A stretch of DNA of 64,000 nt from Clostridia bacterium (lineage in GTDB: Bacteria; Bacillota; Clostridia; Oscillospirales; CAG-382): contig JAFRPL010000032.1 in NCBI GenBank assembly GCA_017429165.1, positions 173,007 through 237,006 on the forward strand. Direction: 5' to 3'. Below the pieces are notes generated by a model, which was not told the origin of the DNA, searched no databases, and saw only the letters and a list, made by a program, of their open reading frames with translations. Shown here piece by piece: positions 4,255 through 25,987 of the stretch (position 1 is its first letter; every line of letters begins with the position of its first letter). A program made the position numbers and the translations under genes.

Positions 4255-5850
4255 ATGAATCTCAGACACCGCAAAAGAACGGCGCTCATAGTATTCTTGC
4301 TGTGCCTGCCGTTGGCTCTAATTGCGTATTTCCTGTTCACTTTCACCAACGAAAAACTCAACGCCGACGAAATAACGAATATGGAGATAACGAGCGACGG
4401 AGCGGAGACGGTCGTATACACCGACCGCGAAAGCATAAGCTTTTATACCGAGCTGTTTCTGGCTTCCTCCAAGCTCAATTCGCCCATGCGCGAGCTGGAA
4501 AACGAACCGGCGGTTAAGGTACGGCTCGAGCGCGAGGATTCGGTGCTCACGTACGTTATCTACCCCGAGCTTTCCGAGACCGGATGTATGTTCACCGATC
4601 CGCGCGGCGTGTGCTATCTTATTCCCAAGGAGGACGCGCGCGCAATGCTTTCGCGCAAGGAATTCTCGTTCCTATACGTGGCTTCGGCGCTCCCCGAGTT
4701 TAATATCGTTTCGGGGTCTTCTAAGACCGAGATACTGCCCGTTTCGTACGGCTGGTATTATAAAAAACAGGACGGCGCGTACGAGCAATACAAAGAAAAA
4801 CCGGTGACCGAAGGCGGCGAATATGCGCGCATCTATTCCAACCGCAGCAATTCGATGACCTTCAGCCGCAAGCCGGACGAGCTGAGCGTGACCATAACCG
4901 ACAAAGACGGCAACATACTGCCGCAGACCGAGCTCGGACCTCTGGTCTTCGGCAACGACACGGTGCTCAAAGTCACGGTGAACGCCACATGGCTCCGCAC
5001 CGGCGCGGGCAACTGCGACGGAAGCGCGTCTTACGATTTTGAACTGCTTTACGATATACCCGCCATTCTCACGCTTTCTTCCGATACGGCGCAGATAGGC
5101 GGAGGCGTGGTGATAAACGTAAGGTTTTTGAACGAAGACGAGACCGTGACGCTTAAATCCGGGCTCGACCTGGGAGAACTGTATTTCACCGAAAACGAAG
5201 GCGTCAAGACCGCCGTGCTGGGCGTTGCGGATACCAATTTCCCCGGCAAATATGAAATAGAGTATACCATAGGCGATAATACCGATTACTTCGACCTCAC
5301 CGTGGCGGGAAAGACCCAGGACGAAAGGTCAGAGATCTACCGTATGAGCGTGAGCGACGAGCTTTACGAACAGGCGCTGAGCGATTCCGCCAAGGCTGAG
5401 CTGAACGGGATAATCGAATCCATATACGCGACCGCCCCCGAAAAGACTTATTCGGTGCTCGGTTTCGCCAAGCCGGTATCTTCGGGCAAGCTTGTCCAGC
5501 CCTACGGCACGCGCGTTATCGCCAACGTGAACAACACGACCGACACTCATCTGTTCTACGCCATAGGCAACACCTATTCCGTGGATAAAGAGGCCGGAGT
5601 CTACGCCGCCGCCAAAGGCAGGATCGCCTATACCGGCGAATGCGGGACTTTGGGCAAAGTGGTCATAATCGACCACGGCTGCGGCGTTTTCAGCTGGTAC
5701 TGCGGACTCAGTTCCATAGAGCGCGGCGAAGGCACCGAGGTCGGTCCTTCCACGTTGCTGGGCAAAGCCGGAGTCAACCCGTACGACAATACTTCCACGG
5801 TGGTGTTCTGCGTCACCGCAGGCAAGGTGTTCATCGATCCAATACCCTGA
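4255..5850 (+). CDS. Membrane-anchored M23/LytM-family peptidase
   Basis: N-terminal TM helix. The C-terminal block GKVVIIDHGCGVFSWYCGLSSIERGEGTEVGPSTLLGKAG matches the M23 HxxxD/HxH-type core. Confidence 0.8.
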   Translation: MNLRHRKRTALIVFLLCLPLALIAYFLFTFTNEKLNADEITNMEITSDGAETVVYTDRESISFYTELFLASSKLNSPMRELENEPAVKVRLEREDSVLTYVIYPELSETGCMFTDPRGVCYLIPKEDARAMLSRKEFSFLYVASALPEFNIVSGSSKTEILPVSYGWYYKKQDGAYEQYKEKPVTEGGEYARIYSNRSNSMTFSRKPDELSVTITDKDGNILPQTELGPLVFGNDTVLKVTVNATWLRTGAGNCDGSASYDFELLYDIPAILTLSSDTAQIGGGVVINVRFLNEDETVTLKSGLDLGELYFTENEGVKTAVLGVADTNFPGKYEIEYTIGDNTDYFDLTVAGKTQDERSEIYRMSVSDELYEQALSDSAKAELNGIIESIYATAPEKTYSVLGFAKPVSSGKLVQPYGTRVIANVNNTTDTHLFYAIGNTYSVDKEAGVYAAAKGRIAYTGECGTLGKVVIIDHGCGVFSWYCGLSSIERGEGTEVGPSTLLGKAGVNPYDNTSTVVFCVTAGKVFIDPIP

Positions 5851-12429: not shown

Positions 12430-12478
12430 TCAATTTTTAATTTTCAATTTGCAATTTGCAATTTGCAATTTGCAATTT
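12430..12478 (+). repeat. 7-bp microsatellite (KYAATTT)x7, with the last four units perfect GCAATTT
   Basis: Units start at 12430, 12437, 12444, 12451, 12458, 12465 and 12472. The repeat ends 6 nt before the tRNA-Leu 5' end. Confidence 0.9.
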
Positions 12479-12484
12479 ATATTC

Positions 12485-12567
12485 GCGGGTATGGCGGAAT
12501 CGGCAGACGCGCCGGATTTAGGATCCGGTGGGAGACCGTGCAGGTTCGACCCCTGTTACCCGCACCA
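12485..12567 (+). tRNA. tRNA-Leu(UAG): tRNA-Leu (anticodon UAG)
   Basis: Hand-folded cloverleaf. Acceptor GCGGGTA/TACCCGC, anticodon stem CCGGA/TCCGG with loop TTTAGGA, a long variable arm, T-arm GCAGG-TTCGACC-CCTGT, and an encoded CCA. Confidence 0.9.
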
Positions 12568-12570
12568 TGC

Positions 12571-12597
12571 AAAAGACCCGCTTAAGCGGGTCTTTTG
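12571..12597 (+). terminator. Rho-independent terminator of tRNA-Leu
   Basis: GACCCGC-TTAA-GCGGGTC followed by TTTT. Confidence 0.75.
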
Positions 12598-12600
12598 CAA

Positions 12601-12860
12601 TGATATCCGTTCCTTCCCCATTCCCCAAAACTCGCTTCGCTCGTTTCGGGGGCCCCTTGGGGCGCCGGAACGGGTGATATATGCTTCGCATATGATATCC
12701 CCTTCGGGGGTGATATACGCCTGCGGCGTATTGACGGGGTCCCCACAAAACCCGCGGGTTTTGTGGGGGTGTCAGGAACGGGTATTATATCATATTGCGA
12801 CGAAGGAGCAATATATCATACGGCGCAGCCGTATATCATATCGCGTCAGCGATATATCAT
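12601..12860 (+). repeat. Micro-hairpin array A (GC-rich hairpins separated by GATAT/ATATCAT spacers)
   Basis: ATATCAT at 12787, 12813, 12833 and 12854, separated by ATTGC..GCAAT, ACGGC-GCA-GCCGT and ATCGC-GTCA-GCGAT. Earlier hairpins are ATATGC-TTC-GCATAT, CCCC-TTCG-GGGG and ATACGCC-TGC-GGCGTAT. There is a perfect 28-nt palindrome at 12741..12768. Confidence 0.7.
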
Positions 12861-12895
12861 TTATCCTGTGTTATGAATATTCTGACCAAACAGTA

Positions 12896-13443: not shown

Positions 13444-14439
13444 TTAACTAAGTTTTTGAATTTCTCTTTTCGCCCAATCGACACACTCGCCGTCGTTAAT
13501 CCCGTAGTCATCGGCAAGAGATTTGATAATCATTTTCCAAACATCAATCGCTTCGGCATTCTTTTTAATCTTGGTATACAGAAATGCTTGAGCGTAAAGC
13601 GCATCCAATTCTTTTGGAACAGGAGCTGCCTCGTATGACTGCTGATATAACTGCAGTGCAGCATCGATGTCATGAATGTTATCGAATCTTTCTGCTATCT
13701 TGAAAAGTAATTCGCAGTCGCGGTGGTTTTCATTCGCTGCGGAACGCCAAAGCGCAATCGCCTTGTCTTTGCGTCCCAAAGCAAGTTCAATATCCCCTTG
13801 ATAAATCTCAAATATTGGTCTTTTTTTAGATGACAGCATCAGAGAAGCAGCATCATCGCAACGACCGTGCGTGATATAAATATCGATCAATGTTTCTACG
13901 AGAATATCGTTCTGTTTATTTTTTGAATACAGAGCTTCAAAAAACTCGATTAAACGATCCGATTCGTCTCGCTTTTCTCTGATTCTTGTCAGTTTTCCAA
14001 TCAAAGCAATGTTTGAGGGCTCGATCAACAATCCTTCTTCGCAGAGCCGACCGCAAGCCAGTAAATCTCTGTTTTCACGATGTTCATACAACTCTACGAG
14101 AAGAATTCGTGCGTTGTTGTTCTGTTTTTCTTCGCTCAATAAACCTTTGAGATATCGTTCTGCCCACAAAAAGTTTTCGGGAGCTATCGAATACTCATCC
14201 CGGATCATTTTGCTGATTCGCTCAATATAATCGTCTTTATTCATTGAAAACAGCGTATCGATGCTGACGCCGAAAAACAAGGCAAGCTGAGGGAGAATTG
14301 CGATGTCTGGCGTTGTTGCGTTTGTTTCCCATTTAGAGACTGCTTGAAAAGATACGCACATTCTGTTCGCAAGTTCTTCTTGCGTGATACCCCGCTCAGT
14401 ACGAAGTTTCTTTATTGCTGCGCCAAGTTTAAGTTCCAT
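13444..14439 (-). CDS. XRE-family HTH regulator with TPR-like C-terminal domain (paralog 1)
   Basis: N-terminus LGAAIKKLRTERGITQEELANRMCVSFQAVSKWETNATTPDIAILPQLALFFGVSIDTLF is a Cro/C1 HTH. The remaining ~260 aa are helical-repeat-like. GGAGG RBS present. Confidence 0.85.
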   Translation of the reverse strand: MELKLGAAIKKLRTERGITQEELANRMCVSFQAVSKWETNATTPDIAILPQLALFFGVSIDTLFSMNKDDYIERISKMIRDEYSIAPENFLWAERYLKGLLSEEKQNNNARILLVELYEHRENRDLLACGRLCEEGLLIEPSNIALIGKLTRIREKRDESDRLIEFFEALYSKNKQNDILVETLIDIYITHGRCDDAASLMLSSKKRPIFEIYQGDIELALGRKDKAIALWRSAANENHRDCELLFKIAERFDNIHDIDAALQLYQQSYEAAPVPKELDALYAQAFLYTKIKKNAEAIDVWKMIIKSLADDYGINDGECVDWAKREIQKLS

Positions 14440-17292: not shown

Positions 17293-17321
17293 TTGACAAC
17301 AGGCAAAAATTATGATATACT
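17293..17321 (+). promoter_or_regulatory. Promoter of tRNA-His (TTGACA-17-TGa-TATACT)
   Basis: TTGACA 17293..17298 and an extended -10 ending at 17321, 12 nt before the tRNA. Confidence 0.6.
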
Positions 17322-17332
17322 CACAAAAGCTC

Positions 17333-17418: not shown

Positions 17419-17441
17419 GGCACGCGCAAGCGTGCCTTTTT
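17419..17441 (+). terminator. Rho-independent terminator of tRNA-His
   Basis: GGCACGC-GCAA-GCGTGCC followed by TTTTT. Confidence 0.8.
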
Positions 17442-17443
17442 GC

Positions 17444-17532
17444 AACTAAATCCTTCCTCCCAATTCCCCGAAACGAGCGATACGAGTTTTGGGGAACGGG
17501 GTCCGCGATTTCACTAAGTGTTTTATCATCCC
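17444..17532 (+). repeat. Micro-hairpin element B (related to the first module of array A)
   Basis: TCCTTCCTCCCAATTCCCC-GAAACGAG..CGAGTTTTGGGG-AACGGGGT, then ATTTCAC and TTATCAT spacers. Aligns with 12609..12680. Confidence 0.55.
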
Positions 17533-21436: not shown

Positions 21437-21512
21437 CGGGATGTAGCGCAGCTGGTAGCGCGCGTGGTTTGGGACCACGATGTCGCAGGTTCGAACCCTG
21501 TCATTCCGACCA
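21437..21512 (+). tRNA. tRNA-Pro(UGG): tRNA-Pro (anticodon UGG)
   Basis: Acceptor CGGGATG/CATTCCG, anticodon stem CGTGG/CCACG with loop TTTGGGA, T-arm GCAGG-TTCGAAC-CCTGT, and an encoded CCA. Confidence 0.9.
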
Positions 21513-21563
21513 AAAAAGAGCAAAAGGGGGTTTACCTCTTTTGCTTCTTTTTTTATTTATAAG

Positions 21564-21593
21564 ACAGGGTTCGAAGGGCGCGTGTTGAATGAC
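21564..21593 (+). repeat. 30-nt direct repeat, copy 1 (ACAGGGTTCGAAGGGCGCGTGTTGAATGAC)
   Basis: Identical to 23603..23632. Its first 10 nt are the reverse complement of the tRNA-Pro T-arm 3' half. Confidence 0.9.
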
Positions 21594-21640: not shown

Positions 21641-21661
21641 CGAACCCTGTCATTCCGACCA
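21641..21661 (+). repeat. 21-nt duplicate of the tRNA-Pro 3' end
   Basis: CGAACCCTGTCATTCCGACCA at 21641..21661 is identical to 21492..21512. Confidence 0.9.
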
Positions 21662-21662
21662 G

Positions 21663-21694
21663 AAAAAGTCCGGCGCTTGCGCGTCGGACTTTTT
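21663..21694. terminator. Bidirectional-looking terminator hairpin
   Basis: AAAAA-GTCCGGCGC-TTGC-GCGTCGGAC-TTTTT. Confidence 0.6.
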
Positions 21695-21881
21695 CAACTC
21701 TATTCGCCTTCGGCGAGTTTAATTGCGTTGCAGTGTTATTCGGCTGACGCCGAGTGTTATTGCGCTTCGCGCAGTTTAAGGCGAATAGAATATCACTTCG
21801 AGCGAAAGCTCGAAATATCACTTTTCGCGCAGCGAAAAATATCACATCACGCGTCAGCGGGATATTTCACTCTTGTAAGGT
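21695..21881 (+). repeat. Micro-hairpin array C (ATATCAC-punctuated)
   Basis: ATATCAC at 21790, 21815 and 21839 and ATTTCAC at 21864. Inserts are TTCGAGC-GAAA-GCTCGAA, TTTTCGC-GCA-GCGAAAA and ATCACGC-GTCA-GCGGGAT. Preceded by TCGCC-TTC-GGCGA, TCGGC-TGAC-GCCGA and TGCGC-TTC-GCGCA. Confidence 0.7.
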
Positions 21882-21910
21882 AGCAGGCTCGGTGAGTCTG
21901 CTCGTTTTTT
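21882..21910 (+). terminator. Terminator closing array C
   Basis: AGCAG-GCTCGGTGAGT-CTGCT followed by CGTTTTTT. Confidence 0.6.
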
Positions 21911-22058
21911 CAGCCGGTATTAACGGTTACGCAACTTAAAAAAGTGTGTAAACCCACTATGACACTTTCACGGCTTCGTCGTGCAAAGATGCCAGTGTGC
22001 TTTATATCAACGCAAGAAATCGAAAAAACTTCGTCCAGTCACTCACGCTCGGCATCAA

Positions 22059-22156: not shown

Positions 22157-23320
22157 ATGAATATCAAAATAGGAGCAAAAATCAAATCACTGCGAAAGCG
22201 CGACGGCGTGACGCAGGAAAAGCTGGCTGACGCTTTGGGCGTCACGGCACAGGCGGTCAGCAAATGGGAAAGTGAAATCGGTTATCCAGACCTTGAGTAT
22301 CTAACACCAATCGCAAACTTTTTCAATATCACGATCGATGAACTCTTTGAACACGATCTTATTGAGAAACAGCGAAAGATCGACGACTACTGCGCACGTT
22401 ATGACGATCTGGCACGGAACTGGTCGCCGCCGGAAGAACGCGTCGAACTGATGCGTCAGGCACTTGCCGAATTTCCTGCAAACGAAAAGCTGCTTTTCCG
22501 TTTGGCTCAGGCTTTGTGGTATAAATGGGAAGACGCATGGCGTTCTTGCGACGAAATTGGCGTAACCATTGACGGCAAGTACCGCCGTGATCAAAACAAA
22601 ATCAGGGCTGTGCCCGGTTGGGAGGAACCGTGCCGGATCATGGAAGAACTGCTTGCGGTTTCCGTTGACGATCTTATCCGTTATGAATGCACGCAGCTTT
22701 TGATATTTATCTACAGTTGTATCGGCGAAAAAGAGCGGGCTATCGAACTGGCGGAGCGCTATCCCGATTCCAAAGACTCCTTTTTGTCGGTGGCCTTTAT
22801 GAACAGTTACGATGATGAAGCCGACATGTACAGTCAAAGGCTCATGATTGACGGTCTTCACAATTTGCTTTACCAGCTTTTAAGACAAGTTAAAACACCG
22901 GCGGACAGAATTGCCGCCGCCAACAAACTGATCGATCTGTATAGTTTTCTTTTTGGAGAGGACTGCGGATTTTATCACGTGCATTTTTATTATCTGTATC
23001 TTGATCTCGTTTCCGCTCTGCTGGATCTGGATCGTACGGACGACGCTTTTTCCGAACTGAATCACGCTTTTGAACACGCCAAAGCGTTCGATGAGTTTTT
23101 GGATAAGCTGCGCAAGGAGGGAGAGTATCTCTATTCATCCTCTGTCGTAAGCAAGTTGAAAAGCAAGTCTGAAGAAGTCTACGCAACAAAACAATTACCC
23201 GAGTTTCTTGAAAACGTGTTGTTGGATAAAAACAACGTATATTTCAAAAAACTGAACGACGATCCACGGTTTATTTCTCTTGTTGAGCGCGTCAAAGAAG
23301 CAATAAACCAAGATAAATAA
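22157..23320 (+). CDS. XRE-family HTH regulator with TPR-like C-terminal domain (paralog 2)
   Basis: ATG 22157 after GGAGG. The N-terminus IGAKIKSLRKRDGVTQEKLADALGVTAQAVSKWESEIGYPDLEYLTPIANFFNITIDELF parallels paralog 1. The C-terminal region is a long helical repeat. Confidence 0.85.
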   Translation: MNIKIGAKIKSLRKRDGVTQEKLADALGVTAQAVSKWESEIGYPDLEYLTPIANFFNITIDELFEHDLIEKQRKIDDYCARYDDLARNWSPPEERVELMRQALAEFPANEKLLFRLAQALWYKWEDAWRSCDEIGVTIDGKYRRDQNKIRAVPGWEEPCRIMEELLAVSVDDLIRYECTQLLIFIYSCIGEKERAIELAERYPDSKDSFLSVAFMNSYDDEADMYSQRLMIDGLHNLLYQLLRQVKTPADRIAAANKLIDLYSFLFGEDCGFYHVHFYYLYLDLVSALLDLDRTDDAFSELNHAFEHAKAFDEFLDKLRKEGEYLYSSSVVSKLKSKSEEVYATKQLPEFLENVLLDKNNVYFKKLNDDPRFISLVERVKEAINQDK

Positions 23321-24540: not shown

Positions 24541-24568
24541 AAAAAAGCAGCCTTTTGGCTGCTTTTTT
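24541..24568. terminator. Bidirectional terminator
   Basis: AAAAAA-GCAGCC-TTTT-GGCTGC-TTTTTT, between convergent genes. Confidence 0.75.
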
Positions 24569-24658
24569 CCAATGATATACGTTCATTGCGGGAGCGGATA
24601 TCATCTTGCGGCGGTAAAAGAATATATCACACACGCCTGCGCGAGAATATCGTTTATC
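24569..24658 (+). repeat. Degenerate micro-hairpin element D
   Basis: Spacers GATATAC, GATATCAT, ATATATCAC, ATATCGT and ATCTCAC are interleaved with short GC-rich segments. Confidence 0.45.
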
Positions 24659-25987
24659 TCACTTCCCCGCAAACTTTTCGCGCACGGCTTTGCAGCGCAT
24701 GGCGAATCCGCGGATGGAAGCGTTGTCGAACCCGGTGATGCCGGAAGAGTACGTATCGTTCAGTGGTTTCGCGAACCGTTCGGGGATATTCGACGCGCCC
24801 ACCAAAGCGCCCATGAACGAGCCGACGGTGGCGCAGTTGCAGTCGGTGTCCATTCCGCAGGTGAGGGCGGTGCAGATGGCGTTTGCGAAATCGCCTTTTG
24901 CAAAGAATATGCTCGCTATGCACACGGCGGAGTTGTTCAGCGCGTGGACCGCGTTGTATTCGGGCATTCCGTTTATCACGCGATCGGCGAGCTCTTCGCG
25001 GCTCTGCGCGGTCTCGCCTATCTTTTTGGCTTCGAGCGCCGTTTCGTAAAAGCGCGAACGTTTTGGCACGAACGAAAGCGCGGTATCGAAGCACTTGTTT
25101 ATATCTTTTTCGGTAAACGCCGCGGCAATGAACGCCGCAAAGAACATCGAAGAATAGACGCCGTTTTTGATATGCGAAAGGAACGAATCCTCGTACGCCA
25201 TCTTCGCCGCCGCCGCGGGCAATCCTGCCGCGCAGTAAGCGTAGCCGTCTATGCGGATCTGCGCGCCGATCCATTCGCGATAAGGGTTGCGGTATTCGTT
25301 TATGCGCTCTCTTTTGAGTATTTCGAGCGCGTGCTCGGGTCTTCCCCACGGGCCGAATTCATCCACCGAGGCAAAGTTCAGGTACACCTGGTTTTCGGCA
25401 GTGCATACGTAGCGGTACGGGATGGAATACATCCAGTGCGCGCCCACGTCGTAACTGTCGAATTTAAAGCCCATCCTTTCGCAAAGCAGCAGAGCCAGAA
25501 CGGTAAAGCGGATATCGTCGTCGGGAGGCATGCCCTGTATTTTTTCGTCGGTCGCAAATCCCTCGTTGCGTTTATCGCCCGATACGGTGGGGACATAGCC
25601 GTCTATGGGATATCTGCCGGCGTTTTTATACCATTCGCGTATCCCTTCGCCGTTCCACAGCTCCACCGGCTGGCCGAGCGCGCATCCGGCGCATCTGCCG
25701 AGCCACGCGCCGTGGAAATAGTCGTCGTCCACAGGCGACACTTCGCCGTCTTCTTTGAAGGCCGCTTCTTTTTTTATGCCTTCCAAGTCGCTGGGTTCGA
25801 CATACGAGTAATCTTTGCGGAACGGAAGCGCCATGAGCTCGTCGTAGAGCGCGGAAAGCTCTTTCTTATCGCCCGCGCATTCGGTTATGCGTTTTTCGCA
25901 TTCCGCGCGGTCGATGACTCTTCCCTCTTCGACGAGCTCGTCGAGTTCTTCGCGAATAAGTATTTCGATCTTCTGATACCCTGCCAT
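24659..25987 (-). CDS. ADP-ribosylglycohydrolase-family protein
   Basis: 442 aa. Motifs GAWLGRCAGCALGQPVE near the N-terminal third and GMDTDCNCATVGSFMGALVG near the C-terminus match the family. Confidence 0.85.
   Translation of the reverse strand: MAGYQKIEILIREELDELVEEGRVIDRAECEKRITECAGDKKELSALYDELMALPFRKDYSYVEPSDLEGIKKEAAFKEDGEVSPVDDDYFHGAWLGRCAGCALGQPVELWNGEGIREWYKNAGRYPIDGYVPTVSGDKRNEGFATDEKIQGMPPDDDIRFTVLALLLCERMGFKFDSYDVGAHWMYSIPYRYVCTAENQVYLNFASVDEFGPWGRPEHALEILKRERINEYRNPYREWIGAQIRIDGYAYCAAGLPAAAAKMAYEDSFLSHIKNGVYSSMFFAAFIAAAFTEKDINKCFDTALSFVPKRSRFYETALEAKKIGETAQSREELADRVINGMPEYNAVHALNNSAVCIASIFFAKGDFANAICTALTCGMDTDCNCATVGSFMGALVGASNIPERFAKPLNDTYSSGITGFDNASIRGFAMRCKAVREKFAGK

Follow-up and report, generated by a model that had tools for sequence, protein, structure and literature searches.

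Gut-1 (RF01706) is a family of hairpin arrays that was first reported from human-gut metagenomes, with 43 representatives, none of them from a sequenced organism (Weinberg et al. 2010, Genome Biol 11:R31, PMC2864571). The published model consists of at least three short hairpins joined by GUGAWAU, of which the AU/GU ends belong to the stems while GAW is single-stranded (PMC2864571). The family was rated 'certainly RNA, probably not cis-regulatory', and no function was proposed (PMC2864571). Beyond that report, no paper mentioning Gut-1 was found in the searchable literature. Here we analyse a 64-kb window, i.e. the whole stretch of 64,000 nucleotides from a Clostridia bacterium, in which an initial annotation had described an array of hairpins separated by ATATCAC (array C). 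Array C is the L half of a composite element of ~180 nt (element C; 21694-21873, all coordinates being positions within the window). Element C is a sub-threshold member of Gut-1, so the array as first described is a rediscovery of a family already on record.

Several other systems resemble Gut-1 in part. The REP, BIME and REPIN elements of Proteobacteria are dispersed intergenic palindromes located at gene 3' ends or between convergent genes, and they are mobilised by RAYT, a Y1 HUH transposase. REP copies share one palindrome sequence, number hundreds per genome, and can act as terminators or 3'-end stabilisers when transcribed. Gut-1 resembles REP and BIME in that a hairpin is combined with a short conserved flank, the units are inverted, the build is mosaic and the element is non-coding. 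The BOX (boxA-boxB(n)-boxC), RUP and Correia repeats of Firmicutes and Neisseria are modular, structured, non-coding intergenic elements of 100-300 nt that affect neighbouring transcription. Gut-1 is likewise modular, with a variable number of internal modules, but it has no target-site duplication or long terminal inverted repeat and keeps a strict position behind a terminator; we know of no sequence relationship between it and any of these repeats. The sponge small RNAs (sRNAs) RsmY, RsmZ and CsrB also form a string of hairpins that displays a repeated short motif, which is GGA in the loops, whereas the Gut-1 motif GUGAWAU lies in the linkers. The RsmX and RsmY Rfam matches in the region are weak and overlap a tRNA terminator (28 and 20 bits versus cut-offs of 56 and 57).

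A different likeness concerns the hairpin tips. Mini-hairpins of the type GCGNAGC/GCGNNAGC are present at single-strand initiation sites, namely the phage G4 origin and ssiA and ssiB of RSF1010, and phage N4 has hairpin promoters (PMC13037366). The Gut-1 tips fit the mini-hairpin consensus exactly: GCGAAAGC, GCGCAGC and GCGTCAGC are the three L-array tips of element C on the + strand, and CCGAAGG is the tip of H1', a hairpin of the opposite half. The two RSF1010 signals lie on opposite strands in inverted arrangement, as the two Gut-1 arrays do. The G4, RSF1010 and N4 mini-hairpins are single plasmid or phage sites, whereas Gut-1 forms arrays in many chromosomal intergenic regions.

Element C is a composite Gut-1 unit

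RF01706 matches the window at four places only: 21785-21872 (-), 21695-21765 (+), 12782-12862 (-) and 12598-12721 (+). The first two correspond to the halves of element C, designated the L array (-) and the S array (+), respectively. They score 41.7 and 40.1 bits, below the Gut-1 gathering score of 50 bits, with E values of ~1e-6 locally and 1e-4 window-wide; array C would therefore be missed by default annotation. The other two are the halves of a second element, element A, whose L array passes the gathering score with 50.8 bits and whose S array reaches 49.4 bits. The at least three GUGAWAU-linked hairpins of the family are present in both halves of element C, with three hairpins in the L array (ATATCAC three times and ATTTCAC) and four in the S array. 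Apart from the linked hairpins, element C shares with Gut-1 the gut source and the layout of the seed flanks, since the flanks in the 2010 seed alignment already show a tRNA or stop codon, a terminator, an array and an inverted array in succession. The Rfam model spans one array, whereas the unit described here is larger and includes a boundary hairpin, a long-range helix (P0), the S array and the inverted L array.

The spacers of array C start at 21790, 21815 and 21839 (ATATCAC) and 21864 (ATTTCAC, to 21870), and the intervals of 25, 24 and 25 nt reported initially are exact. Between them lie the three hairpins that had been described, TTCGAGC-GAAA-GCTCGAA (HL3), TTTTCGC-GCA-GCGAAAA (HL2) and ATCACGC-GTCA-GCGGGAT (HL1), the last with a single A.G mismatch (Table 1). 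Array A (12787-12860) indeed holds ACGGC-GCA-GCCGT followed by ATCGC-GTCA-GCGAT between ATATCAT spacers. The loops had been singled out as conserved; arrays A and C share not merely these loops but the whole tips GCGCAGC and GCGTCAGC. The order of the loops, also put forward as a conserved feature, is confined to the two copies in this genome and is not kept in the wider family. The 'four smaller hairpins' noted ahead of array C (21703-21773) are present, but they are not a prelude: they form a second, oppositely oriented array of the same element, with linkers GTGTTAT/GTTTAAT on the + strand. Both terminators that had been proposed to bound the array, T1 and T2, are real by folding.

The anatomy of the full unit was derived from 52 composite elements, parsed from at least 120 genome loci and the window. 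The unit is ~170-230 nt long, typically 171-173 nt. In S-sense, which is the direction of the upstream gene and the + strand of the window, it consists of a GC-rich hairpin, P0 enclosing the four small conserved hairpins of the S array, and the 3-4 variable hairpins of the L array. Specifically, the GC-rich hairpin is often a bidirectional terminator and is part of the conserved repeat in some subfamilies. The following segment, T.TATTCGCC, is at once a T-rich tract, the 5' arm of H1' (TCGCC/GGCGA) and the 5' strand of P0. Hairpins H2'-H4' have sequences that are conserved across genera and are joined by degenerate linkers of the GTGATAT type. The segment GGCGAATA.A then provides the 3' strand of P0, which closes a helix of 10-11 bp, and the L array follows, its variable stems separated by ATATCAC on the S-sense strand.

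Each of the 7-8 hairpins per element has its own stem, and stems also vary from copy to copy. The oriented heptamer (GTGATAT/ATATCAC) flanks every hairpin, the S and L arrays point opposite ways, and the linkers at the two outer ends are inverted copies of each other, GTGATATT...AATATAAC. Within the L array, conservation is highest in the heptamer: all four linkers read GTGATAT in 33/35 elements, a figure that is inflated at 3/4 L linkers by the selection of the genome sample for exact GTGATAT. Heptamers are spaced 22-26 bp apart in the L array and 16-21 bp apart in the S array. Linker position 4 is unconstrained, and in the S array position 3 varies as well.

Two subfamilies are distinguished. 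Element C belongs to type 1 and element A to type 2, which has (A/G)TGAAAT or ATGATAT linkers and a P0 of the form ..CGTTCC/GGAACG..; the P0-5', H1'-3' and P0-3' segments of type 2 all differ together. The two types coexist on single contigs (loci L183 and L130). Simple forms with one array are found at L133, L147, L153, L160, L209 and L261.

In element C, P0 is present in the minimum-free-energy and centroid folds of both strands, as RNA and as DNA, and its 3' strand reads TAGAAT on the + strand, which is -10-like. The folding z-scores of the 181-nt element are -4.5 (+ strand RNA), -4.1 (- strand RNA) and -3.8 (DNA). T1 folds with -25.5 kcal/mol on the + strand versus -21.6 kcal/mol on the - strand (z = -6.4), A and T runs flank it on both sides, and one G.U pair on the + strand corresponds to A.C on the - strand. 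ATATCAY is present 45 times in the window versus 9.2 expected (~5-fold), a count that 0/100 shuffles reach. A covariance model of the whole unit (R1) scores element C at 162.8 bits, with element C itself in the training set, and finds element A with 39 bits (E = 6e-6) although A belongs to the other subfamily.

Several other architectures were considered and rejected. An array of intrinsic terminators calls for a U-tract after each hairpin, and the internal hairpins of element C are followed by the heptamer instead of a T-run; only T1 and T2 qualify as terminators. A ladder in which the L linkers (GUGAUAU) pair with the S linkers (AUAUCAC) is excluded because the S linkers are degenerate (ATACCAC, ATAGAAC and ATATAAC; GTGTTAT in the window) without matching changes in the L array. 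An inverton flanked by P0 is at odds with the single internal orientation that all 50 distinct P0-bounded segments share. A miniature inverted-repeat transposable element with target-site duplication was dismissed, as no flanking direct repeat is seen at the 52 elements or at the paralogous copies of L174 and L209. The antitoxin RNA of a type III toxin-antitoxin system does not fit either: it calls for identical tandem repeats beside a toxin gene, whereas the Gut-1 repeats are not identical and no neighbouring gene recurs.

The hosts of Gut-1 are gut Clostridia, mostly Oscillospiraceae- and Acutalibacteraceae-type metagenome-assembled genomes (MAGs). A scan of a genome collection for three GTGATAT at 10-20 nt spacing gave at least 120 loci, 80 of them listed. 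Among the matches listed, 74/80 come from Clostridia MAGs of human, ruminant and deer guts, in keeping with the gut restriction of the family, and the rest are tandem-repeat noise. The host labels are Oscillospiraceae, Acutalibacteraceae, 'Eubacteriales', 'Clostridia', Ruminococcus, Christensenellaceae and a few Lachnospiraceae. DNA identical to the window was found in three ENA metagenome assemblies only, and at locus C the three metagenome contigs that share a flanking gene are identical to one another. A plasmid or phage origin of the element was rejected, as PLSDB gave one 43-nt chance match only and INPHARED gave no match. A loose pattern scan of viral contigs (IMG/VR) returned mostly noise, with 3 true arrays in 120 loci. 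These arrays on contigs filed as viral are L102 (3800-4380), a GC-rich variant in which a small open reading frame (ORF) lies between two arrays of the same sense, ~450 nt apart, L031, and L053, where the array lies directly behind a tRNA and its terminator.

As a control we used 514 kb of metagenome DNA from 80 SufBD-protein loci with 75-83% identity and no synteny with Mac or tRNA-Pro. The simple array detector, which misses degenerate S arrays, found 0 arrays there, and the covariance model found one, a genuine simple array (L261). The latter (4925-5125) has four hairpins with linkers ATGAATT/ATGAAAT/GTGAAAT and is located between the SufBD stop codon and the operon terminator, i.e. inside the 3' untranslated region (UTR), in GTGAWAT sense.

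Covariation and the strand question

Covariation was assessed on 35 full elements from different MAGs, including element C, with 37 non-linker pairs scored. RNAalifold recovers all hairpins and P0 from these elements, with 46 pairs, 24 of which carry compensatory changes. Pairing is kept in 96.1% of stem cells, versus 77.6% in column shuffles and 31-45% when partners are slid by 1-3 columns, and the covariation score is 0.445 versus 0.115 in shuffles. Compensatory double changes are seen at 24/37 of the scored pairs. None of 500 shuffles reaches any observed measure, with the reservation that the sequences are related by descent and shuffle controls overstate independence. The P0 column 105-205 covaries strongly (AU 16, CG 10, UA 8); its three pair states track the subfamilies and therefore represent few independent events. 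The central proposal of the initial annotation, namely a structured single-stranded nucleic acid (RNA or single-stranded DNA (ssDNA)) rather than random palindromes, is borne out by the Gut-1 matches on both strands together with this covariation. The possibility that the stems would cease to covary once more copies are aligned is set aside by the same 24 pairs.

Palindrome covariation alone cannot prove RNA. The stems are near-perfect palindromes, and therefore only linkers and loops distinguish the strands. In the 37-pair table there are 196 double changes versus ~12 one-sided ones. G.U pairs occupy 14/1290 stem cells (1.1%), versus 7.1% of pairs in 40 tRNAs of the same loci, and are thus ~7 times rarer. 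Among 225 distinct hairpins, 172 are perfect, and G.U (10) and A.C (15) in the Rfam sense are similarly scarce. A single functional RNA strand should tolerate G.U but not A.C; equal rarity of the two is expected if both strands or DNA must pair, or if templated DNA repair perfects palindromes. On the RNA side of the question, T1 and T2 each carry a G.U pair on the + strand. The hairpins flanking the elements show G.U and A.C at 2 versus 2 on the S side, and the L-side numbers are small.

The loops are strongly biased. The closing pair is C:G in 175/210 hairpins. In GTGATAT sense, the loop TTC is seen 32 times versus GAA once, TGC 15 times versus GCA 0 times, and TAC 13 times versus GTA twice, so that tips on the ATATCAC strand read C(GNA)G or C(GNNA)G. 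GCGNAGC or GCGNNAGC is found 64 times on the ATATCAC strand versus 2 times on the opposite strand, and C-GN(N)A-G 153 versus 33 times. The mini-hairpin consensus thus lies opposite the RNA strand of Rfam, in both the S and the L halves; the S-array tips on the - strand include GCGAAGC, GCGTCAGC and CCGAAGG (H1'). DNA mini-hairpins of the GCGNAGC/GCGNNAGC type are 'extraordinarily stable' and require a C:G closing pair (PMC3201870). Their RNA versions are much less stable, with a Tm of 39 C for r(GCGAAAGC) (PMC13037366). Read as RNA on the ATATCAC strand, 38 tips are C(GNRA)G tetraloops and GNA triloops dominate. The loop bias goes with the orientation of each array; with the two arrays inverted, a single transcript can never present every module in the favoured orientation. 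On these sequence features, the strand evidence leans to the side of DNA or both strands, not to the annotated RNA strand.

Placement, dispersal and candidate explanations

Gut-1 copies lie just 3' of terminators and in a single orientation relative to the upstream gene, as the initial annotation had suggested might be the case. A tRNA is found within 200 nt on the S side of 11/52 elements (21%), always upstream and co-directional, and on the L side of 0; eight tRNA species are involved in all, and the enrichment downstream of tRNA genes is ~8-fold. S-side protein genes are co-directional in 32 cases versus 9 opposed, several of the 9 being tRNA cases that were mis-scored. The distance from the upstream stop codon to the element is 45-60 nt, which is the length of the boundary hairpin. 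By simple consensus scans, which underlie all terminator and promoter calls here, a terminator-like hairpin abuts the S side in 39/48 testable elements (35 of them in S-sense, 26 in L-sense and 22 in both), and one lies within 110 nt on the L side in 20/50. The elements are thus intergenic, at gene 3' ends or between convergent genes, as REP elements are.

The upstream genes are diverse (GroEL, an S1/IspH fusion, PPDK, TrxB, an SLH protein, AraC, MecA and transporters), which rules out a single functional class. No recurrent neighbouring protein was found among 700 ORFs, the largest cluster being a generic ABC transporter at 7 loci, so that a partner protein associated in cis was rejected. Upstream of either array, consensus scanning gave no promoter common to all subfamilies. 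In L131 and L192, 4-8 nt separate the stop codon of the upstream gene from the element, and the next gene of L131 begins 33 nt past the element. Given this tight spacing, and the location of the L261 array between the SufBD stop codon and the terminator, we infer that the element in L131, L192 and L261 must be transcribed within an mRNA. Separately, a gene for a 23S_rRNA_IVP/bAvd-like four-helix bundle is located 10-70 nt behind the L array in L129, L131, L144, L216 and probably L220; in L131 its start is so near the L array that there is no room for a promoter of its own.

The distribution of Gut-1 is that of a dispersed repeat. Two intact copies and a relic are present in the 64 kb of the window. 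Near-identical copies lie 2.7 kb apart in L174 and 1.4 kb apart in L209, with different flanks in each case. Elements L137 and L235, from two species-level MAGs, are identical over ~185 nt including the boundary hairpin, while their flanks are unrelated, and a further three element pairs with unrelated flanks are at least 90% identical. At the other loci (729 kb) there are 5 extra clusters, and additional copies have a density of ~1 per 100-150 kb near the seeds. Further small palindromes are inserted in hairpin loops (H1' of element A, L233, and HL3 of L128 versus L149), and other short conserved motifs stand beside the elements in varying, mosaic-like combinations. The units are inverted in the manner of BIMEs, with heptamer and loop asymmetry following the orientation of each array.

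We tentatively read the Gut-1 element as a REP/BIME-like dispersed hairpin array that is passively transcribed, because of its dispersal, its placement behind terminators, its strand symmetry, its loop consensus and its lack of gene-like features. Selection would then act on ssDNA, or on both strands, and not on a single RNA strand. A module, i.e. a heptamer and a mini-hairpin, would be a putative recognition unit for a trans-acting structure-specific protein that copies or maintains the element. The first hairpin together with the T-rich P0 strand may act as an intrinsic terminator, by which the element would supply or reinforce termination of the upstream gene. Transcription would be passive only, by read-through and as part of 3' UTRs and operon spacers, and once transcribed the hairpins could protect 3' ends as REPs do. 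A bolder version, which we consider unlikely, is that Gut-1 is not an sRNA but the first REP/BIME-like system of gut Clostridia, its both-strand modules being read as ssDNA by a structure-specific enzyme (an HUH-type nuclease or transposase, a primase or a restart factor) and doubling as terminators or insulators behind tRNA and other genes.

A number of observations weigh against a REP/BIME-like array. Unlike in REP, each hairpin has its own stem, the whole 170-nt unit is copied and there are tens of copies at most; the ~2 copies per 64 kb with differing stems contrast with the hundreds of REP copies of one palindrome, and the density suggests a copy number of about tens per genome. No transposase, integrase or HUH protein was found in the window or beside any copy, a search that covered the neighbourhoods only, and no RAYT (Y1 HUH transposase) was found among the 700 neighbouring ORFs or the window ORFs. 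The stem extensions (invariant U.G/A-U from the linker ends, with GAW unpaired) exist only in GTGATAT sense, the terminal P0 pair is U.G in 6 sequences in L-sense only, and P0 with its alternative H1' pairing looks like RNA design. A promoter-like site (-35 TTGAAA, 16-17 nt, TG-extended TATTNT) is present at the junction of L array and P0 in 38/52 elements. The copy behind tRNA-Gln recurs in at least 5 MAGs, with much higher conservation than the sequence around it, and the two coexisting subfamilies are each conserved across species; both facts fit a selected RNA gene equally well. To these is added the published rating of Gut-1 as 'certainly RNA' (PMC2864571).

Several of these points argue for a classical non-coding RNA, which we regard as possible yet doubtful and over which the REP/BIME-like array is favoured. 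Such an RNA would be a string of GTGATAT-sense hairpins with 3-nt GAW junctions between them; it would be transcribed from a promoter of its own or by read-through, e.g. from tRNAs, and its repeated motif would serve as a sponge or scaffold for a protein or RNA partner, or its linkers would be processed. In its favour are the RF01706 covariance-model matches with strong covariation, the orthologous tRNA-Gln loci conserved well above their flanks, the two paralogous subfamilies each conserved across species, and the U.G/A-U extensions, whose pairing survives the G-to-A change at linker position 1 of type 2 in GTGATAT sense only. A same-sense terminator follows the simple arrays in L133, L147, L153, L160 and L261, terminators on the + strand only stand behind both window elements, and the enrichment behind tRNA genes fits piggy-backing on strong promoters. 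Against it, there is no conserved promoter, and a terminator stands immediately upstream in S-sense and often in L-sense too. Any single transcript has half of the modules in antisense, and the ~7-fold deficit of G.U relative to the tRNAs leaves it no commoner than A.C. The loops are unremarkable (UNC) on the annotated strand, with the DNA mini-hairpin consensus on the other; moreover, near-identical copies stand in unrelated contexts, and relics exist.

An improbable alternative is that two RNAs start from promoters inside the element. Specifically, an extended -10 (TGATATTNT) with a TTGAAA -35 in the innermost L hairpin would direct an L-sense RNA across the S array that ends at the boundary hairpin, and TANAAT on the other strand would direct transcription of the L array into an S-sense RNA. 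GNA/GNRA loops would thereby be present in both RNAs, which accounts for the loop orientation in both halves. The promoter-like match is at one fixed position in the 38 elements, the - strand of window element A has TTGCTC-N16-TGATATAAT, and the tRNA-His promoter of the window uses TGATATACT, so this form of -10 is in use in the organism. The boundary hairpin is an L-sense terminator in 26/48 elements, and T2 is a + strand terminator after array C. However, the predicted starts lie downstream of the P0 5' strand and leave the P0 covariation unexplained, there is no reason for pairing to be maintained in hairpins that lie upstream of a promoter, and the depletion of G.U is not accounted for. 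The S-sense site lacks a -35 and a TG, the site of array C is weak and the promoter scan of element C found none, and the S-only units in L209 have unrelated upstream sequence.

Still less probable is an array of protein-binding sites in duplex DNA, comparable to iterons, centromeres or transposon ends, in which the heptamers of two inverted sets have a spacing of about two helical turns. The heptamer core ATCAC is similar to the WATCACW heptads that the omega repressor of pSM19035 binds. The near-invariance of the L linkers, the regular spacing and the inversion of the sets, as at transposon ends, suit such an array. It leaves unexplained why the spacers are perfect palindromes with compensatory changes and biased loops, linker positions 3 and 4 vary as described, no target-site duplication was seen at the copies, and no DNA-binding gene is consistently nearby. 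Finally, element C is bounded by two real terminators, and tRNA genes are commonly followed by palindromes, but a set of ordinary terminators or chance palindromes is excluded by internal hairpins without T-runs, by the 5-fold enrichment of ATATCAY, by a folding z of -4.5, by more than 50 homologous copies with covariation in other genomes, and by the 514-kb control, which gave one array, itself genuine.

Other features of the window and significance

Table 1. Features of the Gut-1 elements of the window and of their surroundings.
Feature	Position	Strand	Remarks
tRNA-Pro(TGG)	21437..21512	+	ARAGORN; Rfam tRNA 65.3 bits; co-directional gene upstream of element C
T1, boundary hairpin with A5/T5 runs, bidirectional form	21662..21695		abuts element C
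Element C, whole composite, type 1	21694..21873	-	end-to-end alignment with 34 MAG elements
S array of element C	21695..21765	+	linkers GTTTAAT, GTGTTAT, GTGTTAT; Gut-1 match 40.1 bits, local E = 3e-6
S hairpins	H1' 21703-21717; H2' 21724-21732; H3' 21740-21753; H4' 21761-21773	+	sequences conserved across MAGs
P0 5' strand, TCTATTCGCC	21699..21708		partner 21780-21789; overlaps 5' arm of H1'; T-rich tract behind T1
P0 3' strand, GGCGAATAGA	21780..21789		repeats 3' arm of H1' (GGCGA)
L array of element C (array C)	21785..21872	-	Gut-1 match 41.7 bits, local E = 1.2e-6
L hairpins	HL3 21797-21814; HL2 21822-21838; HL1 21846-21863	-	linkers 21790, 21815, 21839, 21864
Terminator T2	21882..21910	+	-13.7 kcal/mol; T-run and a G.U pair on + strand only
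Element A, composite, type 2	12598..12862		behind tRNA-Leu (12485-12567) and its terminator (12572-12596)
S array of element A	12598-12721	+	
L array of element A	12782-12862	-	
P0 of element A	12603-12613 with 12775-12785		
Truncated relative of the proximal part of element A, no arrays	17436..17500	+	behind tRNA-His terminator
Possible degenerate relic starting CAATGATAT, like element A	24569..24665	-	adjoins bidirectional terminator 24543-24569, between convergent genes

The three tRNA genes of the window each precede a Gut-1 element or relic, which is intact behind tRNA-Leu and tRNA-Pro and truncated behind tRNA-His. The truncated copy aligns with 12596-12680 over ~70 nt and is not detected by the covariance model. 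The possible relic further downstream scores 13.7 bits with R1 (E = 0.34), which is not significant. Terminators on the + strand only come after both element A and element C. The window is chromosomal and of a spore-forming Clostridium type, with GerA, SpoIIE, a SpoVK-like AAA protein, Suf proteins and a non-ribosomal peptide synthetase; no mobility genes were seen among its genes.

The last 20 nt of tRNA-Pro (21493-21512) are directly repeated 150 nt downstream (21642-21661), with an inverted partial copy in between (21563-21575), and the segment between the repeats has a terminator of its own (21518-21546). The interval from tRNA-Pro to T1 resembles the remnant of an old integration, or else a tRNA pseudogene. 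The tRNA-His promoter (17294-17322) is TTGACA-N17-TATACT, TG-extended and written TGATATACT, and it contains the Gut-1 linker string TGATAT. In the leader just upstream of tRNA-Leu, the heptad CAATTTG is repeated 5-6 times in tandem after TAATTTT/CAATTTT (12431-12472); a similar run of the AATTTTC type is present in the flank of the Gut-1 seed BAAY01013587 of the 2010 alignment.

Two further small motifs accompany the elements. The palindrome family CCCC(A/G)AAAC...GTTT(T/C)GGGG occurs in the window at 12623-12652, 12741-12768 and 17466-17494; two of these are inserts in element A (in the H1' loop and before P0-3') and one lies behind the tRNA-His terminator. An insert of this type is also found in the H1' loop of L233, and the family was noted for L137. 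The motif GAAAGTGTCATAGTGGGTT(T)AC.CAC...GTGCGTAAC, with two hairpins and without an Rfam match, sits 60-90 nt past the L side of Gut-1 elements in the window (21925-21975, -) and in L136, L171, L219, L223 and L237. Genes for regulators of the XRE type, with HTH_3 and TPR domains, lie on the L side of both window elements (13444-14439, -; 22157-23320, +), in stretches of low GC content (0.41-0.47 versus ~0.54); a homologue beside an element was seen in L143 only.

Gut-1 has been in Rfam since 2010 without host, context or function, and hosts, the larger unit and the placement are now added. As submitted, the array is a rediscovery of a known orphan motif and hence of modest novelty of its own. 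New in this analysis are the host range, the complete unit including P0, a rule that places it behind terminators, the two subfamilies, and strand evidence that questions the annotation as RNA. If Gut-1 does act as RNA, these loci give exact coordinates for the first expression tests. If a DNA-level reading is true, some very abundant gut bacteria should have a protein partner of Gut-1 that is yet to be discovered, and the maintenance of palindromes in DNA mimics RNA covariation in a family that was rated 'certainly RNA'. It would then stand as a warning that covariation in palindromic repeats is no proof of RNA.

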